NCBI RefSeq assembly: GCF_900079115.1
Contig: NZ_LT549890.1
Span: forward strand, 900,001 to 932,000
DNA from: Saccharolobus solfataricus
GTDB taxonomy: Archaea > Thermoproteota > Thermoprotei_A > Sulfolobales > Sulfolobaceae
DNA length: 32,000 nt
Direction of reading: 5' to 3'
The position numbers and the translations under genes are program-made. Position 1 is the first letter of the stretch; every line of letters starts with the position of its first letter. Of this stretch, positions 2,225 through 18,790 are shown piece after piece. Under the pieces are notes generated by a model, which did not search any database, was not told the DNA's origin, and worked only from the letters and a program-made list of their open reading frames with translations.

Positions 2225-3543
2225 GAAAGGATCACCAGTAAAAGTATACCGAGAACGAGTGGAATTATAGATGATACAAGAGAAATGAACGTGATTAGCT
2301 TGGGTTCTTCTGAGACTGTCAGCTCTCTTTGAGTGAATATCATTTTGGTAACGTTATAGTTTATTGAGATGAAAGCTGTTGCCAGAGAAATTACTATTAA
2401 TATAAACTCTATAATATAACCTTTTTGAATTAATGTTTGTAATATGAAGAATTCTCCTATGAAAGTTGCAAAGGGTGGCGTACCAGTTACAGCTAGAGAG
2501 GACAATAATAGCGATACTGAGGTGAGTTTTAGTTTTGTATGTAAACCGCCTATGTTTTCAATTCTCTTTTCTCCAAGGACTTTCAATACAATTCCGCTAG
2601 AGTAAAAGGCACCCGCTTTGCCAAATGCGTGTGCAAGAAGGAGGATTATTGCTCCGAGGGGTTGGCCTATTGTAAGTCCAAGCAAGGCTAGGTTCATGTT
2701 TTCTATGGTTGAGTATGCAAACATTCTCTTTATATGCCATTGATAGGTTAGGATAATCGATGCGGTTATTATCGATAAAGTTGTGAATATTACAAAGATA
2801 TTGGTTAATGGATTTACTTGATATACCATGTACACCACGTAAGTTGCGGCTGGAAGTAGTACTCCAGAAAATAATGCGCTTATTGGAGATGGCGCTTCGC
2901 TATGAGCATCTGGTAACCACGTGTACATGGGGAAAACTCCTGCTTTTGTTCCAAATCCTATTAAAGCTAGAGCTACCGCAAGTTTAGTTATTATGTTGTT
3001 TTCAGGTTTTGTAAGTATTTCCGTTACAGTTAATGTATGGTAATTATAGTAGATGAAAATTATTGAGAATAGGGCTAAGGTTACTCCAGCGGATACTATG
3101 ATTATATACCTCCACGTGGCTTCCAGTGAGGTTTCAGATGCTTCCGCTATTATTAGAAGAGCTGAGGTCACAGTTGTGAGTTCTACCCCAACCCACATTA
3201 GACCGTAATTGTTCATAATAACGGTAAAAAGCATTGATGATGCGAAGGAATTTAGTAGAATGTAGTATAATCTTTCACTTACTATTTTGCTTGGTTTTAT
3301 ATAATTCATGGAGTAAAGGGTAGATAGGAGATAAATTGATGCAATCACCAATAGGAAAAACGTTGTGAACTTAGTGATGAAGAAGAAAGAGTTTTTGATT
3401 GGTGCTAAGAAGTAAAGGAAGATGCTGATGATTGATGTTAGTACTGCTGATAGTACGGATAGGGTCTTAATTAGCTTGAGTTTGAAAAAGCCTACGTTAC
3501 TTATTATAGGAATTAATAGTAAGAGTATGGGTTCAATATTCAT
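2221..3543 (-). CDS. NuoN/NuoM/HyfF-type antiporter-like membrane subunit
   Basis: 440 aa polytopic membrane protein with blocks such as FGTKAGVFPMYTWLPDAHSEAPSPISALFSGVLL and LAHAFGKAGAFY, which are typical of the NuoL/M/N-Mrp family. 4-nt overlap with the downstream gene. Confidence 0.75.
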   Translation of the reverse strand: MNIEPILLLLIPIISNVGFFKLKLIKTLSVLSAVLTSIISIFLYFLAPIKNSFFFITKFTTFFLLVIASIYLLSTLYSMNYIKPSKIVSERLYYILLNSFASSMLFTVIMNNYGLMWVGVELTTVTSALLIIAEASETSLEATWRYIIIVSAGVTLALFSIIFIYYNYHTLTVTEILTKPENNIITKLAVALALIGFGTKAGVFPMYTWLPDAHSEAPSPISALFSGVLLPAATYVVYMVYQVNPLTNIFVIFTTLSIITASIILTYQWHIKRMFAYSTIENMNLALLGLTIGQPLGAIILLLAHAFGKAGAFYSSGIVLKVLGEKRIENIGGLHTKLKLTSVSLLLSSLAVTGTPPFATFIGEFFILQTLIQKGYIIEFILIVISLATAFISINYNVTKMIFTQRELTVSEEPKLITFISLVSSIIPLVLGILLLVILS

Positions 3544-3548
3544 TTAGA

Positions 3549-4190
3549 TCACCCTTTTAGTTCATCTAACCTAGAATGTTCTGCTTTTTCTAACGTCAAA
3601 ATTGAGGAAATTATAACTAGCCCTAATACATCAAGGAATACACTCACTTCTATTAAGAAGGGAATGGGTAGTAATAAAATACCAAAAAGAATTGTGGAGT
3701 TTTCTTCTTCTATGAAACCGATGAATTGAAATATTGTACTTTTTCTAGAAATAATAAGGAATAGACCCTGGAAGAGTAAGACAAAGGCGAACAATAGCAT
3801 TAGCGTGTTGTTGATTTCCGTACTTATGGGTATTTTCTCCAATACGAAATAATATACTACTAGAGATGCTATAATGGAAAATGCGAGATTCAATATTAGT
3901 TCAGATGCTACTCCCTTAGAGCTTTCTCTAGCTCCTGGTTTCTCTTTAACTAGACCTCTAAATAAAAATATTGTGATTAGTACAGTCCTCAGTAGTATTA
4001 CTGTTATTCCTAAAATTATATAGTCGATGGAAAAAAGTGAGATTCCTAGATGGAAGGCTAGAATTGCGATTAAGGTAGATTGAATGGCTTGTGCATATAT
4101 TGCTGGTTTAAAGTAAGCTTGTCCTTGAATGTAAAAGGCTGAAATTAATATGAACGTTGAGAGTAGTTCTAGGATCTCTGAGTTAATCAC
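3549..4190 (-). CDS. Small polytopic membrane subunit, HyfE-like
   Basis: 213 aa, about 6 hydrophobic helices. Its size and its position between the NuoH-like and NuoN-like genes match hyfE of hydrogenase-4-type operons. No diagnostic motif recognised. Confidence 0.45.
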   Translation of the reverse strand: MINSEILELLSTFILISAFYIQGQAYFKPAIYAQAIQSTLIAILAFHLGISLFSIDYIILGITVILLRTVLITIFLFRGLVKEKPGARESSKGVASELILNLAFSIIASLVVYYFVLEKIPISTEINNTLMLLFAFVLLFQGLFLIISRKSTIFQFIGFIEEENSTILFGILLLPIPFLIEVSVFLDVLGLVIISSILTLEKAEHSRLDELKG

Positions 4191-4197
4191 TATACCT

Positions 4198-5160
4198 TCA
4201 CCCCAACAAGACAGTAAGCGTTAATGAAAGTAGGGAAAGGAGGAACGCCACTGCGAGATAATCCTGAACTTTAAATAGCCTTAATTTAGCTAGGGTGGTG
4301 TTTATTATAACGCTAATAAGGATTAGGAGTAACCATTTGCCGAACATCACCGCAATGTCTATTAAAGAGCCTATAATTCCAACTTGCAAAAACCAAGGGA
4401 ATATAAATACGTTTAGGAGTACTGAGCCTAATAGATATTGTTTGATGTAAGAACCCCACTTTAGTATTGCAAGTAATTTTCCGCTATATTCGTAGAGAAC
4501 TCCATCGTCTATCATACCCATTTCGCTTAGTCCAGGACTCTCTACGGGTAATTTACCGGTTTCGAATAACCATAACATGAAGAATGAGATCGATACGAAG
4601 ATGTGGTCTAGTTGAAAGTAATGAGAGAGGCTTTGGGAAACGTAATCTAATGTTACGTAAGGGTTGTTTGTACCAGTTATTAGTGCAACGCCGAAGAAAA
4701 CCGTTATCAGTGTAGCTTCAGATAAGAAAGTGAAAGAGAGAATTCTACTTACTCCTAATGCTACGAAATTACTTCCACTTTCTAGGGAGGCAATTATTTT
4801 TATGAACGCAGCTAAGGAGAAGAGTAATGCTCCCCCTAAGAAATCCACCGTAGGGGTGAGTAAGATGGGCACTGGATAAACTACTGGGATGACGAAGGAA
4901 ATAAGGAGATAAATCCCAAAAACTATGTAAGGAGCATAAACAAATAGAGATAATGAGTTATTTGAAATAACGGTTTCTTTTCTTAGTAGTTTAATTATAT
5001 CATAGTAAGGTTGCAGAACACTGGGGCCTTTACGCCCTTCTATTATGGCTTTTCCCCTATCGTAAATTCCTTGATATAATGGGGATAGTAGAATAACTAC
5101 AATAACTTGAGTTATGGTTAAAACTACTATCTGAGCTTCATTTGGCGCCATACTTCCCAC
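4198..5160 (-). CDS. NuoH/HycD-type membrane subunit, first gene of the operon
   Basis: 320 aa polytopic protein. The N-terminal region (GRKGPSVLQPYYDIIKLLRKE) resembles the conserved R-x-GP-x-G-x-LQ-x-ADxxKL block of NuoH/HycD. The track start is GTG 5160; an in-frame ATG lies at 5151. Confidence 0.7.
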   Translation of the reverse strand: MGSMAPNEAQIVVLTITQVIVVILLSPLYQGIYDRGKAIIEGRKGPSVLQPYYDIIKLLRKETVISNNSLSLFVYAPYIVFGIYLLISFVIPVVYPVPILLTPTVDFLGGALLFSLAAFIKIIASLESGSNFVALGVSRILSFTFLSEATLITVFFGVALITGTNNPYVTLDYVSQSLSHYFQLDHIFVSISFFMLWLFETGKLPVESPGLSEMGMIDDGVLYEYSGKLLAILKWGSYIKQYLLGSVLLNVFIFPWFLQVGIIGSLIDIAVMFGKWLLLILISVIINTTLAKLRLFKVQDYLAVAFLLSLLSLTLTVLLG

Positions 5161-5171
5161 CCTTTTGTGGT

Positions 5172-5250
5172 GAAGTAGGCGTCATCAGCCCCTATCATTA
5201 ATCAAGAGGCGGTTCGGGGTTATCCCCAGGGGGACGCCATCCCCTACTTC
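5172..5250 (-). promoter_or_regulatory. GC-rich about 80-nt imperfect hairpin, either the 5' leader of the operon or an independent small RNA
   Basis: Complementary arms on the plus strand: gaagtagg 5172-5179 / cctacttc 5243-5250; ggcgtc 5178-5183 / gacgcc 5233-5238; cccct 5189-5193 / agggg 5228-5232. An inner hairpin gggg-ttat-cccc lies at 5216-5227. It is embedded in very AT-rich DNA and ends 12 nt upstream of the GTG start. Confidence 0.35.
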
Positions 5251-5288
5251 ATTGAGTAAACTCCGCATGTTAATATCGAAGCAAACTA

Positions 5289-5895: not shown

Positions 5896-6306
5896 TTGAT
5901 TATCATGATAGGCAAGGTAATTGTTGTACTAGCAATCATTCTAGTAGGAGTATTTCTCTTAACTCATACTAACCTATTCTATCATCCACAGACTCCAGTT
6001 TCTAAAGGGCAAGAGTACTATACGACTACAAATGTTCAAAACATAACTTATCAATTTGGTATAATATCAAATGTGTCAACAAATTACACTGTTCCCTTGA
6101 AGTTAAGTTATGGCAATGTTACAATTAAAGTAATGGGACATAACGCGTTTAACTTAACCGTGGTAAATAACTCCACTGTAATTTACTCTGGTATAGTTGA
6201 TAGATATTTTAGTAAGACATTTATCATTGGTGGCGATGTTAAGTTAGTGTTTTCATCAAGGCAAGGGTTAGAAGTTAATGTAACGATTTTTGATGTGTTA
6301 AGTTAG
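5896..6306 (+). CDS. Small membrane-anchored extracellular protein, hypothetical
   Basis: 136 aa. N-terminal hydrophobic helix (KVIVVLAIILVGVFLL) followed by a beta-rich region with many N-x-S/T sequons. No recognised family. Confidence 0.45.
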   Translation: MIIMIGKVIVVLAIILVGVFLLTHTNLFYHPQTPVSKGQEYYTTTNVQNITYQFGIISNVSTNYTVPLKLSYGNVTIKVMGHNAFNLTVVNNSTVIYSGIVDRYFSKTFIIGGDVKLVFSSRQGLEVNVTIFDVLS

Positions 6307-6337
6307 TTTTTTCTTTTTATCTTCCATTTCTTTTTGT

Positions 6338-7036
6338 ATGTATAAGTACTTTGACGCTCATTGCCATTATTCCTATTTAAAGAAGAAGTATGAAGGTTAT
6401 CTTATAGCTGCGGTTTCAATGGATTACCAATCCGCTATGGATACTTTCTCCTTAAAGAGTGACAACGTATTAGTAGGAGTTGGTATTCATCCTTGGCGTG
6501 TTCATGAGGAGGATCTGACTAGAATTTTATCGTTGATTATTAAAGCTGATTTCGTTGGAGAAGTTGGTTTGGATTACAGATTCGCTAAGGCTCCTAAAGA
6601 ATTGCAGATTAAATATTTTGAGGAGCAGATAAAAGCGGGAGAAGGTAAGTTGATAAACGTCCACGCTTTAGACGCTTGGAAAGACGCTTTCAACATTTTA
6701 GTTAAAAACGACGTGAAGAGTGCTATCTTTCACTGGTATACTGGTCCCATTAATCTGTTGAAGGATATTGAGAGTGCTGGGTATTTTATTTCTATAAATC
6801 CTTCCGTTTCTTTCCAGAAGAAGCATCAAGAAGTGTTGAAAAATGTCGACCTAAAAAACGTTCTTACAGAGAGTGATGGTGGGTATGAATATAGGGGTAA
6901 GCTATTAGAACCTAGTGATATACCTAACGCTATCTCATTTATGAGCAATTTTTTAGGTATAGAAGAGTATAAGCTAGTGAGAATAATAAGCAATAATTTT
7001 TTCAAAGCTTATGGAGTAAACCCAGTTAATAATTGA
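6338..7036 (+). CDS. tatD: TatD-family metal-dependent hydrolase/DNase
   Basis: TatD motif series FDAHCH, GEVGLDY, NVHA, FHWYTG, TESDG. Confidence 0.8.
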   Translation: MYKYFDAHCHYSYLKKKYEGYLIAAVSMDYQSAMDTFSLKSDNVLVGVGIHPWRVHEEDLTRILSLIIKADFVGEVGLDYRFAKAPKELQIKYFEEQIKAGEGKLINVHALDAWKDAFNILVKNDVKSAIFHWYTGPINLLKDIESAGYFISINPSVSFQKKHQEVLKNVDLKNVLTESDGGYEYRGKLLEPSDIPNAISFMSNFLGIEEYKLVRIISNNFFKAYGVNPVNN

Positions 7037-7090
7037 TATTAATACGGATAGTAAGATCGTTTTAAATTTTCTAGATCAGTATACTATTGT

Positions 7091-9064
7091 ATGGAAGTTA
7101 GGAAAACCATATGCCCTTTCTGTGGTGTAGGTTGTGGTCTAGATTTTTATGTAGAGAATAACTTTATATTTAGGGTATCTCCATCACAAGAGCACATTGT
7201 TAGCAGAGGACACGTTTGCGGTAAGGGCGCTGTTGCTTCAGAAGTAATTTACGCCTGGGACCGTTTAACTTATCCTTTAAAGAGAGTTAAGGACACTTTC
7301 GTTAGGACTACTTGGGATGAAGCAATTAGCGATATTGCTAGCAAGTTAAAGGAAATTAGGAGTAAGTATGGCTCAGAGGCTATTGCCTTTTACGGGGGTT
7401 GTCAGAATACGTTGGAGGAAGGATATTCGTTCATGAAGTTGGCTAGAGCTTTGGGTACTAATAATGTTGACTCGTGTGCTAGGGTTTGTCATGAGCCCTC
7501 TGCAATGGCTTTAAAGGAGTTAGTCGGTATTGGAGCTTCTTCTGTTACCGTTTCTGAAATTTTGAATGCTAGAAATATTGTAATTTCTGGAGAATCTGTG
7601 ACTGATAGCCATCCCGTTTTGTCTCAATATTTAGTTGAGGCTAAGAGAAAGGGTGTGAAAATTGTAGTTATTGATCCTAGGATGACTGGTACTGCTAGGA
7701 TTGCTGATTTGTTTTTACAGATTAGTAGTGGTACTGATATTTATCTATATAACGCTGTTGCGAATTATTTGATAAGTAACGGATTATATGATAGTAAGTT
7801 CGTTAAGGAACGTGTTGAGAACTTTGATGAGTTTAGGGAGATTGTAAAGTCTTATACTATTGAGGAAGCCGAGAGGATTACTAGTGTTAGTAAGGATAAG
7901 ATTATTGAGTTCGCTAGGATTATTGCAAATAAGCCTACAATACTCTCATGGGGTTTGGGTTTAACTCAGTCAAGTGGCGTTAATGCCGTAAAGGCTTACA
8001 TTAACCTAGCATTGCTTACTGGGAATGTTGGTATTAATGGTGGGGGACTATTAGTTTATAGGGGTCAAACAAATGTTCAAGGTTCTGGTGATTTAATAAA
8101 GCCAGATGTTTTCCCAAATGGTCCAATGAATGAGGAAAACGCTAAGGAGTTGAGTAAGATTTGGGGTTTTGTTCCTCCAATCAAGAAGGGTTTGAGCATA
8201 ACTGAGGCTTTTCTAAGGGATAGTAATGTTAAGGCACTTTTTCTAATGAATTACAATCCAGCTTTTAGTTTGCCAAATAGATACAAGGTTATTAAGTTCT
8301 TGAAGTCGTTGGAATTGTTAGTAGTAATGGATCCGTTTATGACTGAGACTGCTAAATATGCACATTACGTTTTGCCTACTCCTTTATGGGCTGAAAAGGA
8401 GGGTTCAGTTACTAATTTAGATCGTACTGTTAAGTGGAGGTTTAAGGTTGTTGATCCTCCTGGGGAGGTTAGGAGTGAGTTGTGGATAATTAAGAGGATT
8501 GCTGAGAAGTTAGGTCTTACTGGTTTTCATGACGATCCTAAATTGGTGTTTAAAGAGATAAAGGAGGTTGCAAAGTTGTACTCTAATTTGACCCTTGATG
8601 AATTGATGGATTACTCTGTAGACTCCAGGTATCCTGATCACGAGTCTAGTCTGTACAAGGATAGGTTTATGACTCCTAGCGGTAAGGCTAAGTTTGGATT
8701 AGTTAGGTATAACGAAATATCTGGTGATAGTTACATTTTAATTACTGGTAGAGTTGTGACTAGGTATAATTCTGATGAGTTGATCAAGAGAGTCCCAGGA
8801 TATAGGAATTTCAGTTCTGATTTGTTGATAAACCCAGAGGATGCTACAAAGCTGAATATCAAAGACGGGGATATGGTTAAGGTTGTTTCTAAATGCGGCA
8901 TGGCTGTGATGAAAGCCAAGCTAACTAACGAGGTTAAGGTTGGTCATACGTTTGCTTATATGCATGATTACTATGTAAACAACGTTGTCTGTGACGATTT
9001 AGATGATATTTCTAAGACTCCAAGATATAAGATAACCTTTGTCAAGATTGAAAAATTGGGATAA
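7091..9064 (+). CDS. fdhA: Formate dehydrogenase alpha subunit (molybdo/tungstopterin, Cys-type), cytoplasmic
   Basis: N-terminal 4Fe-4S motif CPFCGVGCG...C. The active-site block DSCARVCHEPS has Cys-His where FdhH has SeCys-His. It has the conserved RGQTNVQGSGD block. No Tat/Sec signal. Confidence 0.8.
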   Translation: MEVRKTICPFCGVGCGLDFYVENNFIFRVSPSQEHIVSRGHVCGKGAVASEVIYAWDRLTYPLKRVKDTFVRTTWDEAISDIASKLKEIRSKYGSEAIAFYGGCQNTLEEGYSFMKLARALGTNNVDSCARVCHEPSAMALKELVGIGASSVTVSEILNARNIVISGESVTDSHPVLSQYLVEAKRKGVKIVVIDPRMTGTARIADLFLQISSGTDIYLYNAVANYLISNGLYDSKFVKERVENFDEFREIVKSYTIEEAERITSVSKDKIIEFARIIANKPTILSWGLGLTQSSGVNAVKAYINLALLTGNVGINGGGLLVYRGQTNVQGSGDLIKPDVFPNGPMNEENAKELSKIWGFVPPIKKGLSITEAFLRDSNVKALFLMNYNPAFSLPNRYKVIKFLKSLELLVVMDPFMTETAKYAHYVLPTPLWAEKEGSVTNLDRTVKWRFKVVDPPGEVRSELWIIKRIAEKLGLTGFHDDPKLVFKEIKEVAKLYSNLTLDELMDYSVDSRYPDHESSLYKDRFMTPSGKAKFGLVRYNEISGDSYILITGRVVTRYNSDELIKRVPGYRNFSSDLLINPEDATKLNIKDGDMVKVVSKCGMAVMKAKLTNEVKVGHTFAYMHDYYVNNVVCDDLDDISKTPRYKITFVKIEKLG

Positions 9065-11883: not shown

Positions 11884-14061
11884 ATGAAGTATGGTAATAT
11901 GAAAAAATGGGCGCCATTAATATTATTTCTATTTTCTCTATTATTATTACAAGGAATATCTCTTCATGCCTCTTCACCGTCATTTTCCGTGAATGCAAGT
12001 TATTTAGCATCATTGCCTTACGCAAATTCTCATGTCGCAGTAGTATACTATCAAGGTAGCTTATATATCATAGGTGGGGATTCACATTCAAACCAAGTTT
12101 GGATATACTCCAATGGCACATGGAATATCGGGCCTAGTTTGCCTTTTAGTTTAGTTTCACCTTCAGCAATCGTCTATAATAACACAATTTATGTTATGGG
12201 TGGTTATAATAGCACTGGGATAAATCCTTACGTTCTTAAACTTAATGGTAATTCTTGGGTTGTCGTAAGTGAAATGCCACTCCCAGCATACTCACCTTAC
12301 ATATTTGTTTATAATAATGCGATTTACGTTATTGGTGGAGAGAACACCACTAGCCCAGCTGGCCTTTATTTTCCACCTTCTAATGCAATTAGATTATTCT
12401 ACCCCAATAACGATAGTTGGAGGATAATAGGTTACATGCCAGTTCCTACATATGGAGGTGGGTATGTATTTAATGGGACTTCCTTGATAATAGTTAGCGG
12501 TTACATTGGATATAGTGCCTATACCAATGACATATTGATTTATAGTCCACAAAACAATAATTGGACTATTCTTAATGGCGTTCTTCCCTACTGGATTCAC
12601 GATAGTGCCTTAGCCTATTATAGGGGTGTTTTGTTTATTGTGGGTGGTTATATTTATACTGCAGGTTCTGGTGGGGTTAATAACGCAATCCTTGCCTACT
12701 ATAATGGTAATTTGCAAAGAGTTGGATATCTTCCCGTCCCAGTATATTCTGCTGGTTATGTACAAGTAGGAAATATGTTGTATCTTGCTGGAGGCATTGG
12801 TAGTTCATTAAGTGATGTCTCTGCTTTACAGCTAATCACGTTTAACTTCCCACCTCTTCCCCCTAAGATAACCTCTTATTCTGCAGGAAATGAATCCGTT
12901 ACCTTAGGCTGGAATCCAGTTAGACTATCTAGTGGTTATGAGATAATATATTGGAATAACATGGGATTCAACAGCTCAATTAATGTAGGTAACGTTACTA
13001 GTTACACTGTAACTGGTTTGAAAGATGGTATAACATACTACTTTGAGGTTTTAGCTTATAATTCAATTGGCTATTCTTCTCCCTCAAGTATAATCGCGTT
13101 AACTCCAGCTTCAGTTCCTAACCCTCCACAACTCGTTTCTGTGAAGTACGGTAATGATAATGTTACATTGAATTGGTTGCCTCCAACTTTTTCTGGAGGC
13201 TATCTTTTACTAGGTTATTACGTTATTGTTAAGAACGAGAATTCGATGGTTAGCTCACATTTCGTTAATAGTACTAGTTTGACAATAAGTAATCTGACAC
13301 CAAACGTGACTTATAACGTTTTCATTTACGCTGTAAATAAGCTTGGTAATAGCTCTCCCCTAGTACTTACCGTTGTTCCAATTACCAAGGCTAGTGTTTT
13401 TGCATTTATAACTAAACTGGGAAATGGAATTTTAGTCAATTGGACTACTTCTTTCCCAGCTAATATAACTTTGGAACTGTATAATCCTAATGGTAACTTA
13501 ATTTCTCAGATTGCAGCTATAAAGGGTAATAGTAGCTATTTGTTTAGAGTACCTCAAGGTAATTATACGCTAGTAATAATAGCTTCAAACTCAGCTGGGG
13601 TTTCTAAATACGTTTATCAAGTAGTTTACTATTTACCACCAGCCTCTCCGCAAGTCTCGCTTATCGGATTTGGAAATAATCTGTACATTAGTTGGAATAA
13701 TGAAGCGAATGTAATCACATATCTCGTTTACGTTAATAATAGTCTGGTTTATGAGGGACCAAGTAATAGCATTGTGACTAATATTAGTAATGGTACTTAT
13801 TTAGTAAAGGTTATCGGTGTGAATCCAGCTGGCTCTTCATCTCCTGGCATTGCTGTAATTCACTATACCGGTGATTACGTCACTGTGGTTAAGATGAAGG
13901 TTGTTAATGTTACTATTGTCAGTAAGATCGCTTCGGCAGTATCAGGTAATGGCAATAATTTAAGTTTAGGTCAAAGTATTGTTATCATATTACTGGCTGT
14001 AATGATTTTGTTGAGTATTGCTATTATTACGAGAAATAGGAGCAATGGATTTGATTGGTAA
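11884..14061 (+). CDS. Large secreted, C-terminally anchored surface protein: Kelch-type beta-propeller plus about 4 FN3/Ig-like modules
   Basis: Signal peptide MKKWAPLILFLFSLLLLQGISLHA. Repeated Kelch signatures (GSLYIIGG, NTIYVMGGYN, NAIYVIGGEN, GVLFIVGGY, NMLYLAGG). FN3-like modules (VTLGWNP...GYEIIYW...YYFEVLAYNSIGYSSPS; VTLNWLPP...YNVFIYAVNKLGNSSP). C-terminal TM helix IVIILLAVMILLSIAII. Very many N-x-S/T sequons. Confidence 0.7.
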   Translation: MKYGNMKKWAPLILFLFSLLLLQGISLHASSPSFSVNASYLASLPYANSHVAVVYYQGSLYIIGGDSHSNQVWIYSNGTWNIGPSLPFSLVSPSAIVYNNTIYVMGGYNSTGINPYVLKLNGNSWVVVSEMPLPAYSPYIFVYNNAIYVIGGENTTSPAGLYFPPSNAIRLFYPNNDSWRIIGYMPVPTYGGGYVFNGTSLIIVSGYIGYSAYTNDILIYSPQNNNWTILNGVLPYWIHDSALAYYRGVLFIVGGYIYTAGSGGVNNAILAYYNGNLQRVGYLPVPVYSAGYVQVGNMLYLAGGIGSSLSDVSALQLITFNFPPLPPKITSYSAGNESVTLGWNPVRLSSGYEIIYWNNMGFNSSINVGNVTSYTVTGLKDGITYYFEVLAYNSIGYSSPSSIIALTPASVPNPPQLVSVKYGNDNVTLNWLPPTFSGGYLLLGYYVIVKNENSMVSSHFVNSTSLTISNLTPNVTYNVFIYAVNKLGNSSPLVLTVVPITKASVFAFITKLGNGILVNWTTSFPANITLELYNPNGNLISQIAAIKGNSSYLFRVPQGNYTLVIIASNSAGVSKYVYQVVYYLPPASPQVSLIGFGNNLYISWNNEANVITYLVYVNNSLVYEGPSNSIVTNISNGTYLVKVIGVNPAGSSSPGIAVIHYTGDYVTVVKMKVVNVTIVSKIASAVSGNGNNLSLGQSIVIILLAVMILLSIAIITRNRSNGFDW

Positions 14062-14062
14062 A

Positions 14063-14104
14063 TAATAGGGTTAACAAGGTTTGAACCCGGGATCACCAGC
14101 GTTA
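14063..14104. repeat. Left attachment-site copy: decayed duplicate of the tRNA-Pro 3' exon
   Basis: 14080-14103 (tttgaacccgggatcaccagcgtt) matches 17732-17755 at 23 of 24 positions. The adjoining 17 nt (14063-14079) match 17715-17731 at 8 of 17 positions. 7 of those 9 differences are G-to-A or C-to-T in this copy. Confidence 0.55.
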
Positions 14105-14837
14105 TAGAAGAATCTTTATAACATCGTAAATTAGTTGCCATCTTACGGCAATACCTTACAAGTGTAACGCAAAGGCTTTCTTTGAATTTTAGATAAATAA
14201 AAGGAAAATAAGCGAAGAGATGCTAAGAATATGTTATGGCGGTAAATAAGCCTCATCACAAGACTTCATCCAAGATGATCAGAACGGAATTCGTGGATAA
14301 TATCAGTAAAAATTTTGATTGGATTAAAGCAATCTACAAAAGCATTTATCTAAATAAAGCACGCAAAAATCCTCCTCTTTAGATTCCACTCCCTATAGAG
14401 ATTTTCCTTAATTAAAAGAATTATACCCAAAATTACGATACTATGAAAACCGCAACCAAACAAACCTTATTACCTCTATAATAGATTTTTTAATAACTAC
14501 AATATGTTAAGTATCTGCTAACTAAAGTAACACGCTAACGTTTAATTCTGTTTGACAGAATATAATTTTATCAAAGCTAGCGTGACTTACTTTTAAATCA
14601 AAGTTTGATTTTGAATTTAAAAAACTTAACGAGCTTGGTATCTTAGAAAATTGAATGATTTAACAAATCATTAGATATAGAAAAATTTTAGCTACTTGAA
14701 GGTAATGGGAAACCTAACTGGGTAAGAATAAATTATTTCTCTCTAGATGTTTAATTTTGTAGTAAGTATTTAAATTAAGGCGATTATATATACTATAATG
14801 TAATAAATATACCAAATTCGCGTATTTTTATTAAAGG

Positions 14838-14855
14838 AAAAATAAATAATAAAAA
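14838..14855 (-). terminator. T-rich tract downstream of the ABC ATPase gene, a candidate archaeal oligo-T terminator
   Basis: The minus strand reads GCAGTTTTTATTATTTATTTTTCC starting about 12 nt after the TAA stop at 14870-14872. Confidence 0.3.
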
Positions 14856-14869
14856 CTGCACTTTATAAA

Positions 14870-15484
14870 TTATTTAATCTCAATTCGCTCTATTTTTCCT
14901 GTTCTTAAATATATTGTCTTATCACATGATTCTTTGAGCAGAAGATCATGAGAAGCAAAAATTATTGTACCGCTATACTCCCTTATCATATCCTTGACCG
15001 CTTTAGAATTTTCTATATCTAAATTAGATGTAGGCTCGTCAAGTAGTAGTAATTTGGCCTCGGCAGAGAAGGCTAAAGCTAATTTAAATAACCTTCTCTG
15101 ACCAGAACTTAGTTGGTAAGATTTCTTATAAAGAGGTAGATCGAATTTATTAATTAGCTCCTCTGTTTTATTTATATTAAAATCCCTTAATGACGTTATG
15201 AACTCTAAGTTTTCCTTTAAACTAGCATTTTCTAGAAATATTAAATACTCCTCTAGCATGTACATTTCACTTTTTCTTAGCTCTACAGTTGGATTCTTAT
15301 TAAATACCCTTACGTATCCAGAATCTGGATTTAACACGCCATAAATTAGATATAGTAAAGTAGTCTTACCAGAACCATTTGGACCTTGAATTAAAACTTT
15401 CTCTCCTTCATTTACACTGAAATTTACTTTTAGCTCAAAATTTTTAAATTTCTTAAAAACATCTACTTTAACTATCTCACTCAA
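14870..15484 (-). CDS. ABC transporter ATP-binding protein (short, about 200 aa)
   Basis: Walker A GPNGSGKTT, signature LSSGQ, Walker B LLLLDEP, H-loop ASHD. 8-nt overlap with the upstream permease gene. Confidence 0.85.
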   Translation of the reverse strand: MSEIVKVDVFKKFKNFELKVNFSVNEGEKVLIQGPNGSGKTTLLYLIYGVLNPDSGYVRVFNKNPTVELRKSEMYMLEEYLIFLENASLKENLEFITSLRDFNINKTEELINKFDLPLYKKSYQLSSGQRRLFKLALAFSAEAKLLLLDEPTSNLDIENSKAVKDMIREYSGTIIFASHDLLLKESCDKTIYLRTGKIERIEIK

Positions 15485-16571
15485 TACTCCTCACCTTTAG
15501 GAATTTGTGCTGATTACTGTAAGCAGAAAACACCGTATAGTACTCAATCAAAATAGAAGATACTAATAATCCAATTAGTCCAGCTATGAATGGATAGACG
15601 ACCGATAATGGATACCAGTAGACATCGTATAAATAATAATAAGCTATATATACTATTAATGGAATTATACCTATTACCAGAAACGGTAATATTAGCAGCT
15701 TAAAACTTCTCTTCTCGTCTACTCCATTAATTATGAATAGTGCCAGAACGTTTGAAAATCTACTTCTAATTCTAAATATAAGGAGTAATGAGATCAGAAT
15801 GTAAATGGTTTCGACTATTTCTGAGGTAGTCCTTAATGAGTTAAGCTGAAAATACGAAAATGTAAACGAGGAACCAAATCGAGTTATAGAATACCAGTCT
15901 GAAAGCGGTAAACCTTCGTATTTTGTATTAGATAAGAAAGCTTTGAATTCATTTAAAGCAGTATAATTATCTTTAAGAATTATAACATTATCTAATGAGT
16001 TTATAGTGTAGTTTATATTAGTTAAAGGTAAGATAGCAAATCCTTCTGCGGAAAAGAACGCGTTATATAATATTCCAACAACTCTTAAACTTATGATATT
16101 TTTTCCCATATATACACTAACGTTCTCACCTAGCTGAAGATTAAGCTGATTCATTTTACCAGCTACCAAATATACTCCATATTCTGGATATCTACCTATT
16201 GCGATCATAGAGGAAATAGGAAATATTTTCTTAGCCAAACTTAAATTATTTATTGCAATAGCCTCAACTGTAGCTCCACCAAGTCTAGCCCCTATATAAA
16301 TATATCCAAAAGGTGCTAAAGAATTATTACCGAAGAGCCTTTCTAACTGATTTATTACTAAAGTATTGTTATTACCGGCTATACTTACCACAGATAGATT
16401 GCTATAACTCGTTGCTCTAACTTGATATATGGTTAGGGAACTAAATAAGGCAAAAAAGAAAAGGTGCAAGATTGGAAGAAATAATAAAAGAATTAATAAA
16501 AATATTACTAAATCTCTTATACTATTTCTTGTTAAGAATTGTTTAAAAATAGATTTAAGCATATTTAGCAC
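15477..16571 (-). CDS. FtsX/MacB-type ABC permease: TM1, a large extracytoplasmic domain, then three C-terminal TMs
   Basis: The call rests on topology. TM about residues 20-45, an approximately 200-aa non-hydrophobic sequon-rich domain, then three C-terminal helices (IYILISLLLIF, LLILPFLVIGIIPLIVYIAYYYL, VVYPFIAGLIGLLVSSILI). The probable real start is ATG 16562, preceded by GGTG. No sequence motif recognised. Confidence 0.55.
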   Translation of the reverse strand: MLNMLKSIFKQFLTRNSIRDLVIFLLILLLFLPILHLFFFALFSSLTIYQVRATSYSNLSVVSIAGNNNTLVINQLERLFGNNSLAPFGYIYIGARLGGATVEAIAINNLSLAKKIFPISSMIAIGRYPEYGVYLVAGKMNQLNLQLGENVSVYMGKNIISLRVVGILYNAFFSAEGFAILPLTNINYTINSLDNVIILKDNYTALNEFKAFLSNTKYEGLPLSDWYSITRFGSSFTFSYFQLNSLRTTSEIVETIYILISLLLIFRIRSRFSNVLALFIINGVDEKRSFKLLILPFLVIGIIPLIVYIAYYYLYDVYWYPLSVVYPFIAGLIGLLVSSILIEYYTVFSAYSNQHKFLKVRSIE

Positions 16572-16603
16572 CTAATATATTTAATCAGATTGAGAAAAAA
16601 GAT

Positions 16604-16903
16604 TTAAGTTATGGATAATGTCTGATAGGAATATGAATACCCTGAACCTACTGATACTGAACGAGCCCACCATGGTGTTATATTAAGATTTATTGCTCCT
16701 GCTGCTCCATAATCCACTTGTCCTATCAGGTTTGTGTTAGATGGAATGGGTTGCGCTATGTAGTATCCGATAGTTTCAGGTGATGTAATAAACCATATTG
16801 AATAATAAGCTGCAGCCCATACTTTAACATTACCCCAGTTAGCAGCTACCACATTAACTGGCGGAATACCACCTATTTCTCCAGTTATTTGGAGTTTAGG
16901 CAT
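16604..16903 (-). CDS. Small aromatic/Gly-rich beta-type protein (99 aa from MPKLQITGEIGG...), no recognisable export signal
   Basis: ATG 16903-16901 is preceded by GGAGGT at SD distance and overlaps the upstream stop (tATGccTAA). The upstream part of the track ORF (from 16936) is an alternate-frame reading of the preceding gene. No family recognised. Confidence 0.45.
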   Translation of the reverse strand: MPKLQITGEIGGIPPVNVVAANWGNVKVWAAAYYSIWFITSPETIGYYIAQPIPSNTNLIGQVDYGAAGAINLNITPWWARSVSVGSGYSYSYQTLSIT

Positions 16904-17153
16904 AACTACCTCCGTTAATACTGTAGTTAGTAACAACAGCGAAGTTTACAGCAGTTGTAGGTACAGGTATCGGGCCTACATTATCTGGGCAAACTTCTAT
17001 ACTTTCCGCACCATATGCCGTAGAGCCTATAGCAACACTTCCACTAGACCATGCGAAATAAGGGTTATTCTCAAAAGCTAATGTGATTATAGAGATTATA
17101 GGTACTGTTATAGCTAATAATATTACAGCTTTTAGAACTAACTTTTTCCCCAT
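16896..17153 (-). CDS. Small secreted or membrane-anchored protein (85 aa), first gene of the island operon
   Basis: N-terminus MGKKLVLKAVILLAITVPIISIITLAF is a positive patch followed by a hydrophobic helix. The K-A-V-I-L segment also fits a class III (pilin-type) processing-site pattern. A TATA-like box lies about 27 nt upstream. Confidence 0.5.
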   Translation of the reverse strand: MGKKLVLKAVILLAITVPIISIITLAFENNPYFAWSSGSVAIGSTAYGAESIEVCPDNVGPIPVPTTAVNFAVVTNYSINGGSYA

Positions 17154-17177
17154 TTTATATCACTATATTAAACCATA

Positions 17178-17185
17178 ATTTATAA
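17178..17185 (-). promoter_or_regulatory. TATA-like box (TTATAAAT on the minus strand) for the island operon, consistent with a leaderless transcript
   Basis: atttataa at 17178-17185. Its centre is about 27 nt upstream of ATG 17153. Confidence 0.4.
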
Positions 17186-17465
17186 CTTTTTTTACTCTCA
17201 TAATACTTAGTAAGATAGGTTTAAAGTTAGAAATCTATCCTTATAAATCTAGTTTTGGATATATAGATATTATAGGTAATTTTTATTCCTTGATGTTGTC
17301 GTTAACCTATTTATTTTTCCTATTACGAGTATTTAGGACATAATCAAGTACTCCATTCCCCTATTCTTGGGAAAAACGCTGTTCCTTGAATTTAAAGGTT
17401 AATAACGACACTATGAATCTTTACTGTCTTCTTTCAACTTAACGCGTTTTGACTGCAAAAATTAA

Positions 17466-17771
17466 CGGGTTCCCAATGCTTATAAGCCCGTTTTAGCAAC
17501 CATAATACGGGGCATAAAACTGACGAAAGATAAGACGCGCTATAAATATGGCGACTATATTTTACGTGAGAGAAAAGGGCGGTATTATGTCTATAAGTTG
17601 GAAACGATAAACGGTGAGGTAAAGGAGCGTTACGTTGGTCCTTTAGCTGACGTTGTTGAATCGTATCTGAAGTTGAAAGAAAGTAATGGAATTGGGGGTG
17701 GGGGGTACCCCCCACAATGGGGCCGCCGGGATTTGAACCCGGGACCACCAGCGTTCTGGTGGTTAGGGTAG
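17466..17771 (+). pseudogene. SSV-type integrase N-terminal fragment, Int(N), reading through the att site into the tRNA
   Basis: Hand translation gives ...[83 protein letters not shown]. From memory, the [27 protein letters not shown]...[18 protein letters not shown] block closely resembles the SSV1 integrase N-terminus. The expected ATG position reads CTG (17520). It is absent from the ORF track because it has no usable start. Confidence 0.7.
17715..17756. repeat. Right attachment-site copy, which is the functional 3' exon of tRNA-Pro
   Basis: See the left copy at 14063-14104. Identity between the two copies stops at 17755/17756, 2 nt inside the tRNA intron. Confidence 0.55.
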
Positions 17772-17814
17772 TATCCCCAGGCTGGCATCCTAGTCCAAGC
17801 TAGACTACGGCCCC
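17718..17814 (-). tRNA. tRNA-Pro (anticodon GGG) with a 21-nt canonical-position intron (17754-17774)
   Basis: Hand-folded from GGGGCCGTAGTCTAGCTTGGACTAGGATGCCAGCCTGGGG[ATACTACCCTAACCACCAGAA]CGCTGGTGGTCCCGGGTTCAAATCCCGGCGGCCCCA. Acceptor stem is 7 bp GGGGCCG/CGGCCCC. Anticodon stem is CCAGC/GCTGG with loop CUGGGGC. T arm is CCGGG-TTCAAAT-CCCGG. The D loop has A14, G18G19 and A21. CUGG/CCAG plus 3-nt bulges form a BHB-like motif. No encoded CCA. Confidence 0.85.
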
Positions 17815-17836
17815 TTTAATAAAGATAGAGGGAGGG

Positions 17837-17844
17837 TTTAAAAA
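17837..17844 (-). promoter_or_regulatory. TATA box (TTTTTAAA on the minus strand) for tRNA-Pro
   Basis: tttaaaaa at 17837-17844. Its centre is about 26 nt upstream of the tRNA 5' end at 17814. Confidence 0.45.
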
Positions 17845-18022
17845 TTAACTCGTTTCTAATACTCACATAATACTTTTACTTTCGGTCTACTCTCTCTCCC
17901 TATTTAATACGTTTGTATAACGAGTATCACAGTAGTTTGTGCTATATTAAATGGTGTAAATAGTTGTTAATAGGTGGTCATCAATTCCGATAAAATACGT
18001 TTGCAGGAATTGTGGAACAATA

Positions 18023-18208
18023 TTGCATAAGTTTGAAAAGGTTGGACAAGATTTCTATGGTGTGAGGACTCCCTCAGAGATTAAATCAATATTCGGAGGC
18101 AGATGCCCTAGATGTGGACATGAGTTAGGTATCCCGACTTTAAACGATATAAAGATAAATCTTAAAAAGAAGACAACAAAAGTTATGGTTTTAGAACAAC
18201 TGAGATAA
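18023..18208 (+). CDS. Small zinc-ribbon protein; the true N-terminus is probably upstream of the track start
   Basis: The track ORF starts at TTG 18023 and contains CPRCG. The frame is open upstream to 17960 and there encodes ...IPIKYVCRNCGTIL, which supplies the first CxxC of a CxxC...CxxC ribbon. That extension contains no ATG, GTG or TTG. Confidence 0.5.
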   Translation: MHKFEKVGQDFYGVRTPSEIKSIFGGRCPRCGHELGIPTLNDIKINLKKKTTKVMVLEQLR

Positions 18209-18790
18209 GAGCTGGTCAAAAGTTATTTCAGATTTAGAATACTTGACCCCCAAGTCACGCCTATTTAGATAGTTTGAAAGTAGTTTTGTGACATTTCTGG
18301 GTTTCTCTTTTATTGTCGCAGAATCGTAATCTATAATATACGTTCTGTTATACGAGACTATTACGTTTTTCCATGGTCTACTCAATTCTTTATGCTCTAT
18401 GAGTTTCTCTTCAAGAATTCTAGCTCTTTCTAGTAAATCAATTATTGTTTCTCTTCTCTCATTTTTCATTAAATTTCTCCCATGTATATACTCCATTAAA
18501 ATAAAATTCTTACCGTAATCGTAAACCCTTGGTGCTACTTCCTCTCCGGCTTTGATTTGTAATTTTGCTTCAATTTCTAAGGTTTCTTTAGGAGCATCTG
18601 TTCTCCTTATTTTTAGGACTTTGTATGGTTCAACTAATACTACTATTCCAGTTTTTCCTTTCCCTAATACTTTTAAACTCCCTAAGTTCTTTTGACCAAA
18701 TGAGTACGCGTAATCAAATCCCGCCTTTCTTAGCTCTTCTTCAACTTCTTTAGAATAAGTAGGGTAGATAAAACAGCTTATTTTAACCAA
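18191..18790 (-). CDS. Atypical small protein-kinase-fold protein (Bud32/RIO-like size; HKEL in place of HxD)
   Basis: Gly-rich loop LGKGKTGIV, lysine in YKVLKIRR, hinge ILMEYIHG, catalytic-loop-like [15 protein letters not shown], and IIDYDSA in place of DFG. I place the start at TTG 18790 (MVKISCFIY...). The longer track ORF (to 18961) overlaps the cca coding region in another frame. Confidence 0.55.

Follow-up and report, generated by a model that had tools for sequence, protein, structure and literature searches.

The stretch from 14870 to 17153 of the window (the whole 32,000 nucleotides of Saccharolobus solfataricus DNA that were analysed) is a three-gene operon encoding an exported protein (gene 1), a permease and an ABC ATPase, and it forms part of the decayed remains (14080-17755, about 3.65 kb) of an element with an SSV-type integrase that sits in tRNA-Pro(GGG). 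Gene 1 is broken here by a single-base frameshift; genes 2 and 3 are a highly divergent type VII (MacB/LolC/HrtB-like) ABC permease and ATPase. The first-pass annotation had described an island cargo operon for four proteins, including two distinct small ones and an FtsX/MacB-type transporter; its observations are confirmed in part, and its interpretation is partly supported. The features on which the argument rests are these:

14080-14103, no strand assigned: distal att copy, repeating 24 nt of the tRNA 3' part in direct orientation, 23/24 identical (repeat family D1, alignment)
14080-14310, plus strand: decayed int(C), covering the beginning of an SSV-type integrase's C-terminal part (tblastn, blastn)
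14832-14855, minus strand: T-rich tract TTTTTATTATTTATTTTTCCTTT after the last stop (read from the sequence)
14870-15484, minus strand: ABC ATPase, 204 aa, TTG start (PF00005, E = 8.5e-25)
15477-16571, minus strand: permease, 364 aa from a GTG start, 361 aa from the ATG at 16562 (ORF list, AlphaFold, Foldseek)
16604-17153, minus strand: gene 1, ancestrally a single gene for a 182-aa exported protein, here a frameshifted pseudogene (alignments A1, A3, A8)
16604-16903, minus strand: 99-aa ORF, the C-terminal fragment of gene 1 (ORF list, database matches)
16896-17153, minus strand: 85-aa ORF, the N-terminal fragment of gene 1 (ORF list and alignment)
16910-16911, minus strand: frameshift site, an extra G that turns GGAGT into GGAGGT (DNA alignment)
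17178-17193, minus strand: BRE-like AAAAAAAG and TATA box TTATAAAT (read from the sequence)
17428-17505, plus strand: remnant of SSV1 ORF E-54 with in-frame stops (85% identity over 26 aa, E = 3e-9)
17520-17756, plus strand: int(N), the first 69 codons of an SSV-type integrase, entering the tRNA/att (SSV1 Int match)
17718-17814, minus strand: tRNA-Pro(GGG) with an intron of about 24 nt, the integration target (Rfam RF00005, 51.8 bits)

All four minus-strand ORFs reported earlier (85, 99, 364 and 204 aa) are in the window ORF list at exactly the coordinates given for them, and the alignments show that the two smallest together make up one 182-aa gene. When aligned at DNA level with L001, L002 and L004, three relatives, the window has one G too many, AACGGAGGTAGTT versus AACGGA-GTNGTT; within alignment A1 this G is unique to the window sequence, being absent even from L014, which is 99.7% identical. 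Deleting it in silico yields one 182-aa ORF, colinear with intact ORFs of 182-213 aa elsewhere. Three S. islandicus strains (REY15A, M.14.25, L.S.2.15), one strain of S. solfataricus and two distant relatives known from metagenomes carry gene 1 as one uninterrupted ORF; the 182-aa form is present at at least seven S. islandicus loci and in S. solfataricus AB1303, and the homologues in L004 and L011 are 213 and 188 aa long. A dN/dS of 0.17-0.33 marks gene 1 as a real coding gene. In the window, the frameshift truncates the N-terminal part after 85 codons, leaving an ORF that holds the signal/anchor and about 55 further residues, with its last four codons out of frame, and leaving an internal ATG (16903) behind the SD-like GGAGGT. 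The 85-aa ORF has no called protein counterpart in a collection of 5.8 billion proteins; the 99-aa ORF is annotated elsewhere as SSO1036 (in a 110-aa, TTG-start version) and as WP_012717535.1. What had been taken for a signal-less, Gly/Trp/Tyr-rich 99-aa protein is the C-terminal half of the exported protein, and for annotation purposes one pseudogene underlies both SSO1036 and the unannotated 85-aa ORF, each being half of it. The reading as two separate small proteins is largely refuted by the alignments.

The minus-strand operon itself is genuine, with a promoter, coupled genes and a T-rich terminator. The TATA-like box that had been noted at a leaderless position is there, AAAAAAAG-TTATAAAT at 17193-17178, with its centre some 28 nt ahead of the first ATG (17153) and conserved in the S. 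shibatae and S. solfataricus relatives (L001, L002; DNA alignment), a spacing that fits a putative promoter for a leaderless or near-leaderless transcript. The claim of internal SD-like motifs and overlapping stops and starts divides: a GGTG does lie upstream of the permease ATG, and the ATPase TTG start, preceded by GGTGAGGAG, overlaps the permease stop (ATTGAGTGA); given the +G insertion and the single intact ORF in relatives, however, the GGAGGT and the overlap of the two small ORFs are a frameshift scar. The T tracts at 14855-14832 behind the last stop, also seen in the first pass, are likely an archaeal terminator. None of the papers found in a literature search mentions SSO1034-1036.

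The gene 1 product has one hydrophobic segment (residues 5-23), an N-terminal signal or anchor that is followed by an aromatic- and Gly-rich, low-charge domain of about 155 aa; within the 155 aa of the mature part there are 3 K+R and 7 D+E. The domain is predicted to be extracytoplasmic and bears N-glycosylation sequons, NYS/NYT in 6/6 aligned homologues and NIT in 5/6. The K-A-V-I-L segment that had been proposed as a class III pilin-type cleavage signal is not conserved: the position is K/R-A in the window, L002 and L004, K-T in S. shibatae, K-S in L016 and K-I in L011, and the [KR]-[GA] motif for PibD cleavage of type IV (class III) pilins is found in only 3/6 homologues. The end of the hydrophobic helix shows a small-residue -3/-1 pattern (TLA before F, SFA before I, VNA before I), which would fit signal peptidase I as well as or better than PibD cleavage. 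Searches of Pfam, NCBIfam, PHROGs, PADLOC and the PDB detected no relative of known function.

The permease, 100% identical to SSO1035, has the proposed layout of one TM segment, an ectodomain of about 200 aa and three further TM segments. Hydropathy places the four segments at 18-36, about 245-267, 289-307 and 321-347; all seven N-X-S/T sequons lie inside the loop of about 200 aa between TM1 and TM2 (residues 55-201), and K/R-rich stretches at the N-terminus, in the TM2-3 loop and at the C-terminus follow the positive-inside pattern. The AF2 model has helices at 15-47, 243-281, 286-314 and 322-363 and the order TM1, alpha/beta ectodomain, TM2-4. This is the topology of type VII permeases, with TM1, a large extracytoplasmic domain, TM2-TM4 and both termini cytoplasmic. 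In a Foldseek comparison of the model with the PDB, ranks 1-41 were all LolE/LolC/HrtB/YbbP/YknZ/MacB/BceB or the 3is6 permease domain (E 3e-7 to 8e-3, probability up to 1.0), with full-length alignments of 295-369 columns. The model is poor (pLDDT 49.8, pTM 0.31; Foldseek TM-scores 0.2-0.45), and at this quality the type VII fold class is supported by the prediction and subdomain detail is not.

Sequence comparison gives a sparser picture. The permease has no match in Pfam, NCBIfam (including the lactococcin 972-associated membrane family) or PDB sequence/profile searches; Pfam FtsX (PF02687) and MacB_PCD (PF12704) match none of six family members, even at E = 10 (the window protein was scanned at a limit of E = 1, and P0001, P0004, P0007, P0008 and P0012 at E = 10); and HMMER found no link from the permease to any type VII protein among 1.84e9 representatives. 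When aligned by hhalign to E. coli LolC/LolE/MacB/FtsX it scores 1.4% probability, the sole aligned stretch being the G[DE]xV...VVG motif of the periplasmic domain; its UniRef cluster is named 'MacB-like periplasmic core domain-containing protein'. Of the earlier MacB/FtsX-type assignment, and of the HMM and structure searches that had been suggested as a check, the topology and the Foldseek matches of a weak model (type VII only among the top 41) hold, and a supporting sequence family does not, the Pfam, NCBIfam and PDB profile searches having come back empty. SSO1035/SSO1034 are a type VII ABC transporter missed by standard domain searches.

The short ABC ATPase is what it had been called, a complete ABC NBD with Walker A, signature, Walker B and H-loop all there, and its gene adjoins the permease gene and is translationally coupled to it. 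Its closest solved sequences are ABC-F NBD2, ABCB1 and ABCE1, not MacB/LolD, and its best PDB/NCBIfam relatives are ABC-F NBD2, TupC, CydD, CcmA, ABCB1 and ABCE1, with FtsE and LolD scoring lower. All these matches lie under the curated cut-offs, and the sequence is not of the MacB/LolD/FtsE clade; the match to TIGR03608, of the lactococcin 972 type, reaches 87.5 bits against a cut-off of 254.85.

The island claim holds because a 24-nt att repeat and the two halves of an SSV-type integrase flank the operon, at tRNA-Pro(GGG); its G+C is 29-33%, versus 34-38% across the remaining window. The proximal att copy is the 3' part of the tRNA itself (17732-17755). The int(C) piece matches SSV1 Int residues 69-165 by tblastn (33% identity, E = 0.01 within the window) and positions 15-168 of the S. 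islandicus SSV MK054204.1 by blastn (71.6%, E = 1e-11), and int(N) is 71% identical to SSV1 Int residues 1-69 (E = 1e-25), with 82% nucleotide identity to SSV1 1744-2073; Pfam PF07935 matches the ORF homologous to int(N) in other strains. The int(C) and int(N) matches are contiguous in circular MK054204.1, and their placement, int(N) at an intact tRNA and int(C) at the distal att repeat, is that of a partitioned integrase. Fusellovirus core genes (capsid VP1/VP3, DnaA-like and others) are absent from the interior, a blastn comparison of 14500-17500 and of 14062-14869 with 50,697 phage records matched only the integrase/E-54 ends, and the cassette was not found in a free virus or plasmid among sequenced fuselloviruses or plasmids.

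The family is confined to Sulfolobaceae and is patchy there, with 8 representatives in a set of 1.84 billion proteins. The small gene stays linked to the transporter, a point for which a neighbourhood check had been proposed: the order small gene-permease-ATPase is kept in four divergent lineages (Saccharolobus, L004, L011, L016), whose permeases are only 31-59% identical and whose genes are tightly spaced or overlap. In L004 the operon comes straight after another tRNA, and in L011 straight after tRNA-Val(CAC). Fragmented cassettes occur in Stygiolobus, Sulfurisphaera javensis, Acidianus ambivalens, S. caldissimus and S. islandicus Y.N.15.51.

Damage is concentrated in gene 1. This gene of 549 nt has acquired at least six independent inactivating mutations in lineages with intact transporter genes (+G, -AA, -A, +T, premature stops at Q134 and at codon 55, along with the loss of about 50 nt), and the indels sit in short G, A or T runs. 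The transporter (1.7 kb) has no indel over 16 loci, versus at least five disrupted gene 1 alleles; under equal per-base risk, at least five of six lesions falling in gene 1 has p ~0.004, in a post hoc calculation. An intact gene 1 with a broken transporter was never seen among the loci compared: where gene 1 is intact the permease is always intact, and so is the ATPase wherever it is complete on the contig (contig ends cut the gene in L011 and L022). Permease dN/dS lies at 0.06-0.28 and ATPase dN/dS at 0.09-0.19.

The explanation of the whole that we favour, while holding it only tentatively, is an archaeocin-type producer/self-protection cassette on a decayed element, reduced here to the pump. 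Such a function is inferred, and the mechanism would be of the following kind. The gene 1 protein would undergo Sec export and then stay on the external side of the membrane or be anchored there; the permease would probably act as a homodimer with two ATPase subunits, as in HrtBA and MacB; and ATP-driven movement of the ectodomain and stalk helices (mechanotransmission) would extract or expel the gene 1 protein from the membrane surface. Extraction would both release the protein and shield the producer from its action, and strains like the present one would be non-producers retaining the protective pump. The pattern of gene loss gives indirect support to the candidate toxin with an export or immunity pump that the first pass had suggested; a costly surface protein or a virus receptor, among other explanations, would account for it equally well. 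If the producer/protection reading is true, it would give a genetic handle on inter-strain antagonism in Sulfolobus and supply an archaeal example of producer/cheater dynamics; if it is wrong, the repeated loss of the exported protein still indicates a strongly selected surface factor, e.g. a virus receptor.

A more specific version, which we consider doubtful, is that the cassette is an unrecognised Saccharolobus archaeocin: a membrane- or vesicle-bound glycoprotein toxin of about 17-20 kDa with a type VII pump that releases it and protects against it, spread by tRNA-integrating elements and polymorphic in populations. REY15A, M.14.25 and L.S.2.15 would then be producers, and P2, LAL14/1, L.D.8.5 and B12 immune non-producers. 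The toxin could be the S. islandicus sulfolobicin or its relative. Work by Prangishvili et al. from 2000 is said to have found S. shibatae B12 sensitive to the sulfolobicin of S. islandicus HEN2/2; B12 carries an intact pump, and its sensitivity therefore argues against the cassette toxin being the HEN2/2 sulfolobicin.

Less likely than the producer/self-protection reading, though a serious competitor, is that the 182-aa protein, anchored in the membrane, serves the pump as an extracytoplasmic partner, like MacA/YknX, EnvC/PcsB of FtsEX or TesA of YbbAP, the real substrate being something else (a lipid, hydrophobic xenobiotic, metal complex or foreign peptide) and the cassette a mobile resistance or efflux module. 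Type VII systems often pair with an extracytoplasmic partner (MacAB, FtsEX-EnvC, YbbAP-TesA), and YbbAP and YknZ are among the Foldseek matches; the operon is tight and its gene order conserved, and the hydrophobic segment is long (about 19-21 residues), as anchor-like as it is cleaved-signal-like. An obligatory subunit, however, is not expected to be lost at least six times beside intact pump genes, and the gene 1 protein is without similarity to any known adaptor.

That the entire cassette is, in this genome, non-functional debris left by a trapped element, its transporter ORFs intact merely for lack of time and the surplus of gene 1 lesions due to chance or local mutational bias, we regard as unlikely. 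The dN/dS of both transporter genes, the freedom from indels of 1.7 kb at 16 loci while at least five alleles are disrupted in 549 nt, and the intact promoter, SD and coupling signals count against it, although the element is indeed decayed (integrase split and degenerate, E-54 with stops), the cassette is fragmented in the five taxa named above, and the indels lie in short homopolymeric G, A or T runs.

It is improbable that the exported protein is a filament subunit or S-layer accessory, whether a class III pilin or a donor-strand fibre, assembled by the ABC transporter. We know of no type VII ABC system that builds filaments, the [KR]-[GA] motif occurs in only 3/6 homologues, and there is no PibD-type context and there are no assembly ATPase or platform genes; these points stand against an N-terminal hydrophobic helix, a domain of beta-suggesting composition and glycosylation sequons, all of which would suit such a role. 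Archaeal thread-type fibres have no known assembly factors (PMC9715654), which leaves room for it, but the thread cluster is without an ABC transporter, and comparison detected no sequence relation. Hardly credible is the literal reading of an 85-aa secreted and a 99-aa cytoplasmic product made by translational coupling or programmed frameshifting: although the extra G puts GGAGGT 4 nt ahead of an in-frame ATG, making the 99-aa ORF translatable, and the +G allele is common (the 99-aa protein is found on 130 contigs, S. solfataricus P2 among them), the single ORF is ancestral and also the form with the widest spread, the gene is broken in close relatives at other places and in other ways (-2, -1, +1, nonsense, deletion), so that no single recoding signal suffices, and the 99-aa part would be without an export signal.

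Among known systems, the type VII group (MacB, LolCDE, HrtBA, YbbAP, BceAB, YknYZ, FtsEX) shares with the cassette a four-TM permease with a large TM1-TM2 extracytoplasmic domain, cytoplasmic N- and C-termini and an NBD that is separate or adjacent; the permease is near HrtB and YknZ in size (about 340-400 aa), and its top Foldseek matches are all of this group. Unlike these systems, the cassette has a permease without an FtsX or MacB_PCD Pfam match, an NBD not of the MacB/LolD/FtsE type, an archaeal host without an outer membrane and, as partner, an orphan 182-aa exported protein in place of an MFP, LolA or hydrolase activator. To our knowledge archaeal type VII ABC systems have scarcely been studied, and the cassette offers one with an obvious candidate client, tractable strains and natural 'knock-out' alleles. 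Lactococcin 972-type operons, and SDP/YknWXYZ protection in Bacillus, likewise begin with a gene for an exported protein and continue with a dedicated membrane component and an ABC ATPase, but there is no sequence relation and the exported protein of the cassette is larger and unrelated; bacteriocin operons of the lactococcin 972 type are often on mobile DNA, and immune non-producer variants are common. Sulfolobales-restricted, as the cassette is, are also the sulfolobicins SulA/SulB of S. acidocaldarius and S. tokodaii and the HEN2/2 toxin of about 20 kDa, which is membrane/vesicle-bound. We know of no ABC pump linked to sulAB, nor of any identification of the S. islandicus sulfolobicin gene. 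Sulfolobicins are Sec-exported, membrane-associated proteins of about 20 kDa, found in Sulfolobales only (PMC3387779), and sulA/B/C are absent from S. islandicus genomes (PMC3718332).

The integration site resembles those of trapped SSV-type elements at Sulfolobus tRNA genes (SSV proviruses, pXQ1-like), with int(N) at the intact tRNA, int(C) at the distal att and an att that overlaps the 3' half of the tRNA; it differs in its interior, which is the ABC cassette, the SSV matches in 14062-14869 and 14500-18300 being only the integrase pieces and E-54. An intN fragment at this tRNA is already on record for S. islandicus, at the intron-containing tRNA-Pro(GGG) of three strains (PMC3718332, Table 5).

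The operon lies on the minus strand, with the following elements:

17193-17178, minus strand: TTATAAAT with a purine-rich, BRE-like stretch; the first ATG follows ~28 nt downstream
16896-17153, minus strand: 85-aa ORF
16604-16903, minus strand: 99-aa ORF
15477-16571, minus strand: 364-aa permease ORF
14870-15484, minus strand: 204-aa ATPase ORF

All four ORFs lie where the first-pass annotation had placed them, and since the promoter-like box, the GGTG in front of the permease ATG, the ATPase TTG that overlaps the permease stop with GGTGAGGAG in front, and the T tracts downstream of the operon's last stop are likewise all present, its description of the operon is correct. The BRE-like stretch and TTATAAAT are conserved in S. 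shibatae and in a second S. solfataricus strain. The window belongs to a Saccharolobus chromosome: the 364-aa membrane protein shows 100% identity with SSO1035 of S. solfataricus P2, and it matches a protein of S. islandicus Y.G.57.14 at 100% over 361 residues; the 110/99-aa ORF is SSO1036. Searching the literature for SSO1034-1036 and for MacB in Sulfolobus yielded nothing relevant.

The 85-aa and 99-aa ORFs had been read as two small proteins, but comparison with relatives reveals that they are one gene (gene 1). In S. solfataricus AB1303 the upstream gene forms one continuous ORF of 182 aa, in the metagenomic contig L004 one of 213 aa, and ...NYSINGVVMPKLQITG... reads uninterrupted across the point at which the window switches frame. 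In a DNA alignment the window carries one extra G, AACGGAGGTAGTT against AACGGA-GTNGTT in three others, and the 182-aa ORF is restored once this G is removed. Given the single ORF in relatives and the extra G in the window, both the GGAGGT taken for an internal SD and the overlap of stop and start are the scar of a frameshift, and what looked like a signal-less Gly/Trp/Tyr-rich protein is an exported protein's C-terminal half; the two novel small proteins reduce to a frameshifted pseudogene in the window. Neighbourhood look-ups found the intact 182-aa gene in S. islandicus REY15A, M.14.25 and L.S.2.15 and in several other assemblies, and show this to be the common state; the word-indexed protein search had missed the intact S. 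islandicus homologues. A divergent locus, L011, encodes a 188-aa homologue of gene 1 next to a permease that is only 31% identical. Pairwise dN/dS values of 0.17-0.33 show that gene 1 is protein-coding and under purifying selection. Programmed frameshifting of gene 1 was rejected, because the disruptions differ among relatives and many relatives are intact.

These disruptions are numerous. The window has the extra G, and annotations of S. solfataricus P2 and S. islandicus Y.N.15.51 include the same 99-aa product. Two hot-spring metagenome contigs whose operons are 99.7% identical to that of the window (L014:5422-5965 and L015:3808-4351) have no extra G and instead lack AA 32 nt downstream of the +G site, an independent knock-out of gene 1 at almost no sequence divergence. 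The other alleles lack one A (L.D.8.5), gain one T (LAL14/1), lose ~50 nt (LAL14/1-like assemblies) or carry a nonsense mutation: Q134* in S. shibatae B12 and a single in-frame stop, at codon 55, in the divergent locus L016. In all loci with a disrupted gene 1 the 1.7-kb transporter has no indel and retains full-length permease and ATPase ORFs, and wherever gene 1 is intact the transporter is intact too (the ATPase being judged where it is complete on the contig). Fragmented transporters, in Stygiolobus, S. javensis and A. ambivalens, go together with a gene 1 that is itself degraded or missing. Assuming that disruptions strike at random per base, a post hoc calculation gives p ~0.004 for 5 or more of 6 in gene 1. 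The recurrent inactivation of gene 1 is a new observation.

The restored exported protein has a single hydrophobic segment (residues 5-23) with Lys/Arg in front, followed by a domain of ~155 residues that holds 3 K+R and 7 D+E and is rich in aromatics and Gly. Such a low-charge, aromatic- and Gly-rich composition is typical for extracellular proteins of acidophiles. Two N-glycosylation sequons are shared by the aligned homologues, NYS/NYT by 6 of 6 and NIT by 5 of 6. The class III pilin-type signal seen in the first-pass annotation did not survive comparison, since the [KR]-[GA] motif is replaced by K-T, K-S or K-I in other homologues. The small residues in positions -3/-1 where the helix ends would suit signal peptidase I, and an uncleaved anchor is equally possible. 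The 'beta-rich' character of the protein is something that we infer from composition. Sensitive searches were run for the small protein, and they returned no relative in Pfam, NCBIfam, PHROGs or PADLOC and only chance-level matches in sequence and profile searches of the PDB (alignment A8); the transporter's partner is an orphan. Kinship to the thread-filament cluster was rejected, as ABC genes are absent from that cluster and no similarity to it was detected.

For the permease, scans of Pfam, NCBIfam, PHROGs and PADLOC gave nothing useful, and sequence and profile searches of the PDB (alignments A2 and A5, and the family member P0012) gave chance-level matches at most. Searched exhaustively with an HMMER profile, 1.84 billion representatives yielded only 8 family members, all from Sulfolobaceae or unassigned hot-spring contigs; the UniRef name of the cluster is 'MacB-like periplasmic core domain-containing'. 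The protein has four hydrophobic segments, with a K/R-rich N-terminus, TM2-TM3 loop and C-terminus, and all 7 of its 7 sequons fall in the ~200-residue loop after TM1; the topology predicted from these features is that of MacB/FtsX. A first AlphaFold model from 5 sequences was unusable (pLDDT 38.6), and a second with 10 family sequences reached a pLDDT of 49.8 overall and 70-80 around residues 130-170. With this 49.8-pLDDT model as query against 350,542 PDB chains, Foldseek ranks 1-41 contain only LolE, LolC, HrtB, YbbP, YknZ, MacB, BceB and a putative permease domain. E-values reach 3e-7, and LolE, LolC, HrtB, MacB and BceB give full-length alignments of 241-369 columns, most above 295. An hhalign comparison of the permease family with an alignment of E. 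coli LolC, LolE, MacB and FtsX was not significant (1.4% probability), and the sole stretch aligned was the characteristic G[DE]xV...VVG...P[LI] motif. The first-pass assignment to the MacB/FtsX type therefore holds for topology and for the structural ranking from a weak model, and fails in the sequence-signature tests; we accept the type VII fold class for the permease as a model-based assignment. The transporter is of a known kind, yet an extreme sequence outlier restricted to Sulfolobaceae.

The short ABC ATPase called at first pass is confirmed as a complete but compact ABC NBD (PF00005 at 8.5e-25) with all motifs present. Among solved structures it is closest to ABC-F NBD2, ABCB1 and ABCE1 and not to MacB, LolD or FtsE, and in sequence it departs from a typical type VII NBD.

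Rather than moving substrates through the membrane, type VII ABC systems extract molecules from its outer face, or expel them, by ATP-driven movements. Examples, which are also Foldseek matches of the permease model, are LolCDE for lipoproteins, HrtBA for haem, MacB for a Sec-exported enterotoxin, and YknYZ and BceAB for protection against peptides. The simplest reading by analogy is that the co-encoded exported protein would be the pump's client. In producer/immunity cassettes, production is easily lost while protection is kept, and production without protection is not tolerated. Because the asymmetric loss seen here has that same pattern, we favour, with modest confidence only, the cassette as an archaeocin-like producer/self-protection module, reduced to its pump in the window genome. 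As alternatives, the pump may be a resistance pump with the exported protein as an accessory subunit, the exported protein may be a surface structure or virus receptor whose loss is selected for, or the cassette may be a neutral relic.

The surroundings of the cassette are those of an integrated element:

17718-17814, minus strand: intron-containing tRNA-Pro(GGG), by Rfam's tRNA model
17520-17756: int(N), the first 69 residues of an SSV-type integrase, 71% identity to SSV1, E = 1e-25
14080-14103: 24-nt copy of the tRNA 3' part, 23/24 bases

The tRNA was missed by ARAGORN, as were the equivalent tRNAs in S. shibatae, S. solfataricus AB1303 and L004. It is directly adjoined by int(N), which is preceded by a decayed ORF E-54. 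After the 14080-14103 repeat the integrase continues (SSV1 Int residues 69-165, 33% identity); this stretch matches an S. islandicus SSV by blastn (E = 1e-11), in whose circular genome the two matched segments adjoin each other. Such a split integrase with an att repeat is the signature of SSV-type integration. The operon sits inside this 3.65-kb bounded segment, which has the window's lowest G+C (29-33%), so that the description of the operon as island cargo stands. An intN fragment at tRNA-Pro(GGG) was noted earlier in three S. islandicus strains (PMC3718332), in a table that gives only this fragment and no distal att, int(C) remnant or cargo. The mobile-element context of the cassette is a new observation.

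Because the operon begins 63 nt after a different tRNA in L004 and 228 nt after tRNA-Val(CAC) in L011, and a cassette remnant lies near tRNA-Arg(CCG) in Acidianus ambivalens, the loci point to repeated tRNA-targeted acquisition. In the A. ambivalens remnant (L012:5029-5121 and 6001-7585) gene 1 is missing, the permease is truncated at its N-terminus and the ATPase is intact; the remnant lies ~870 nt from tRNA-Arg(CCG), SSV1's own target, but on the 5' side of this tRNA. Searches of viral contigs, phages and plasmids found no carrier among sequenced viruses, plasmids and IMG/VR contigs. Two genome-contig scans returned no cassette genes, although several NCBI Sulfolobaceae assemblies hold them, a limit of the scans; negatives from these and from the word-indexed protein search are not evidence of absence. 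A metagenome scan gave only two near-identical loci.

Beyond the ATPase gene, the plus strand of the window (11884-14061) encodes a probable glycosylated surface protein of 725 aa. It combines Kelch beta-propeller repeats with several fn3 domains and has a signal peptide and, at its C-terminus, a TM anchor; the distal att copy begins 19 nt past its stop codon. The interval between the two genes is variable (S. shibatae compared with window 14137-14782): REY15A has an IS605 OrfB/TnpB gene there (L020:3732-4086), S. solfataricus AB1303 a 3.3-kb insertion (L002:7842-11200), and in S. shibatae B12 the int(C) remnant is gone. Elsewhere in the window, a fluoride riboswitch (RF01734, 52 bits, E = 8e-12; 5169-5253, minus strand) lies directly upstream of a membrane-complex operon of NuoH-like, Mrp/NuoL-like, NuoD-like and NuoB-like genes (447-5160, minus strand).
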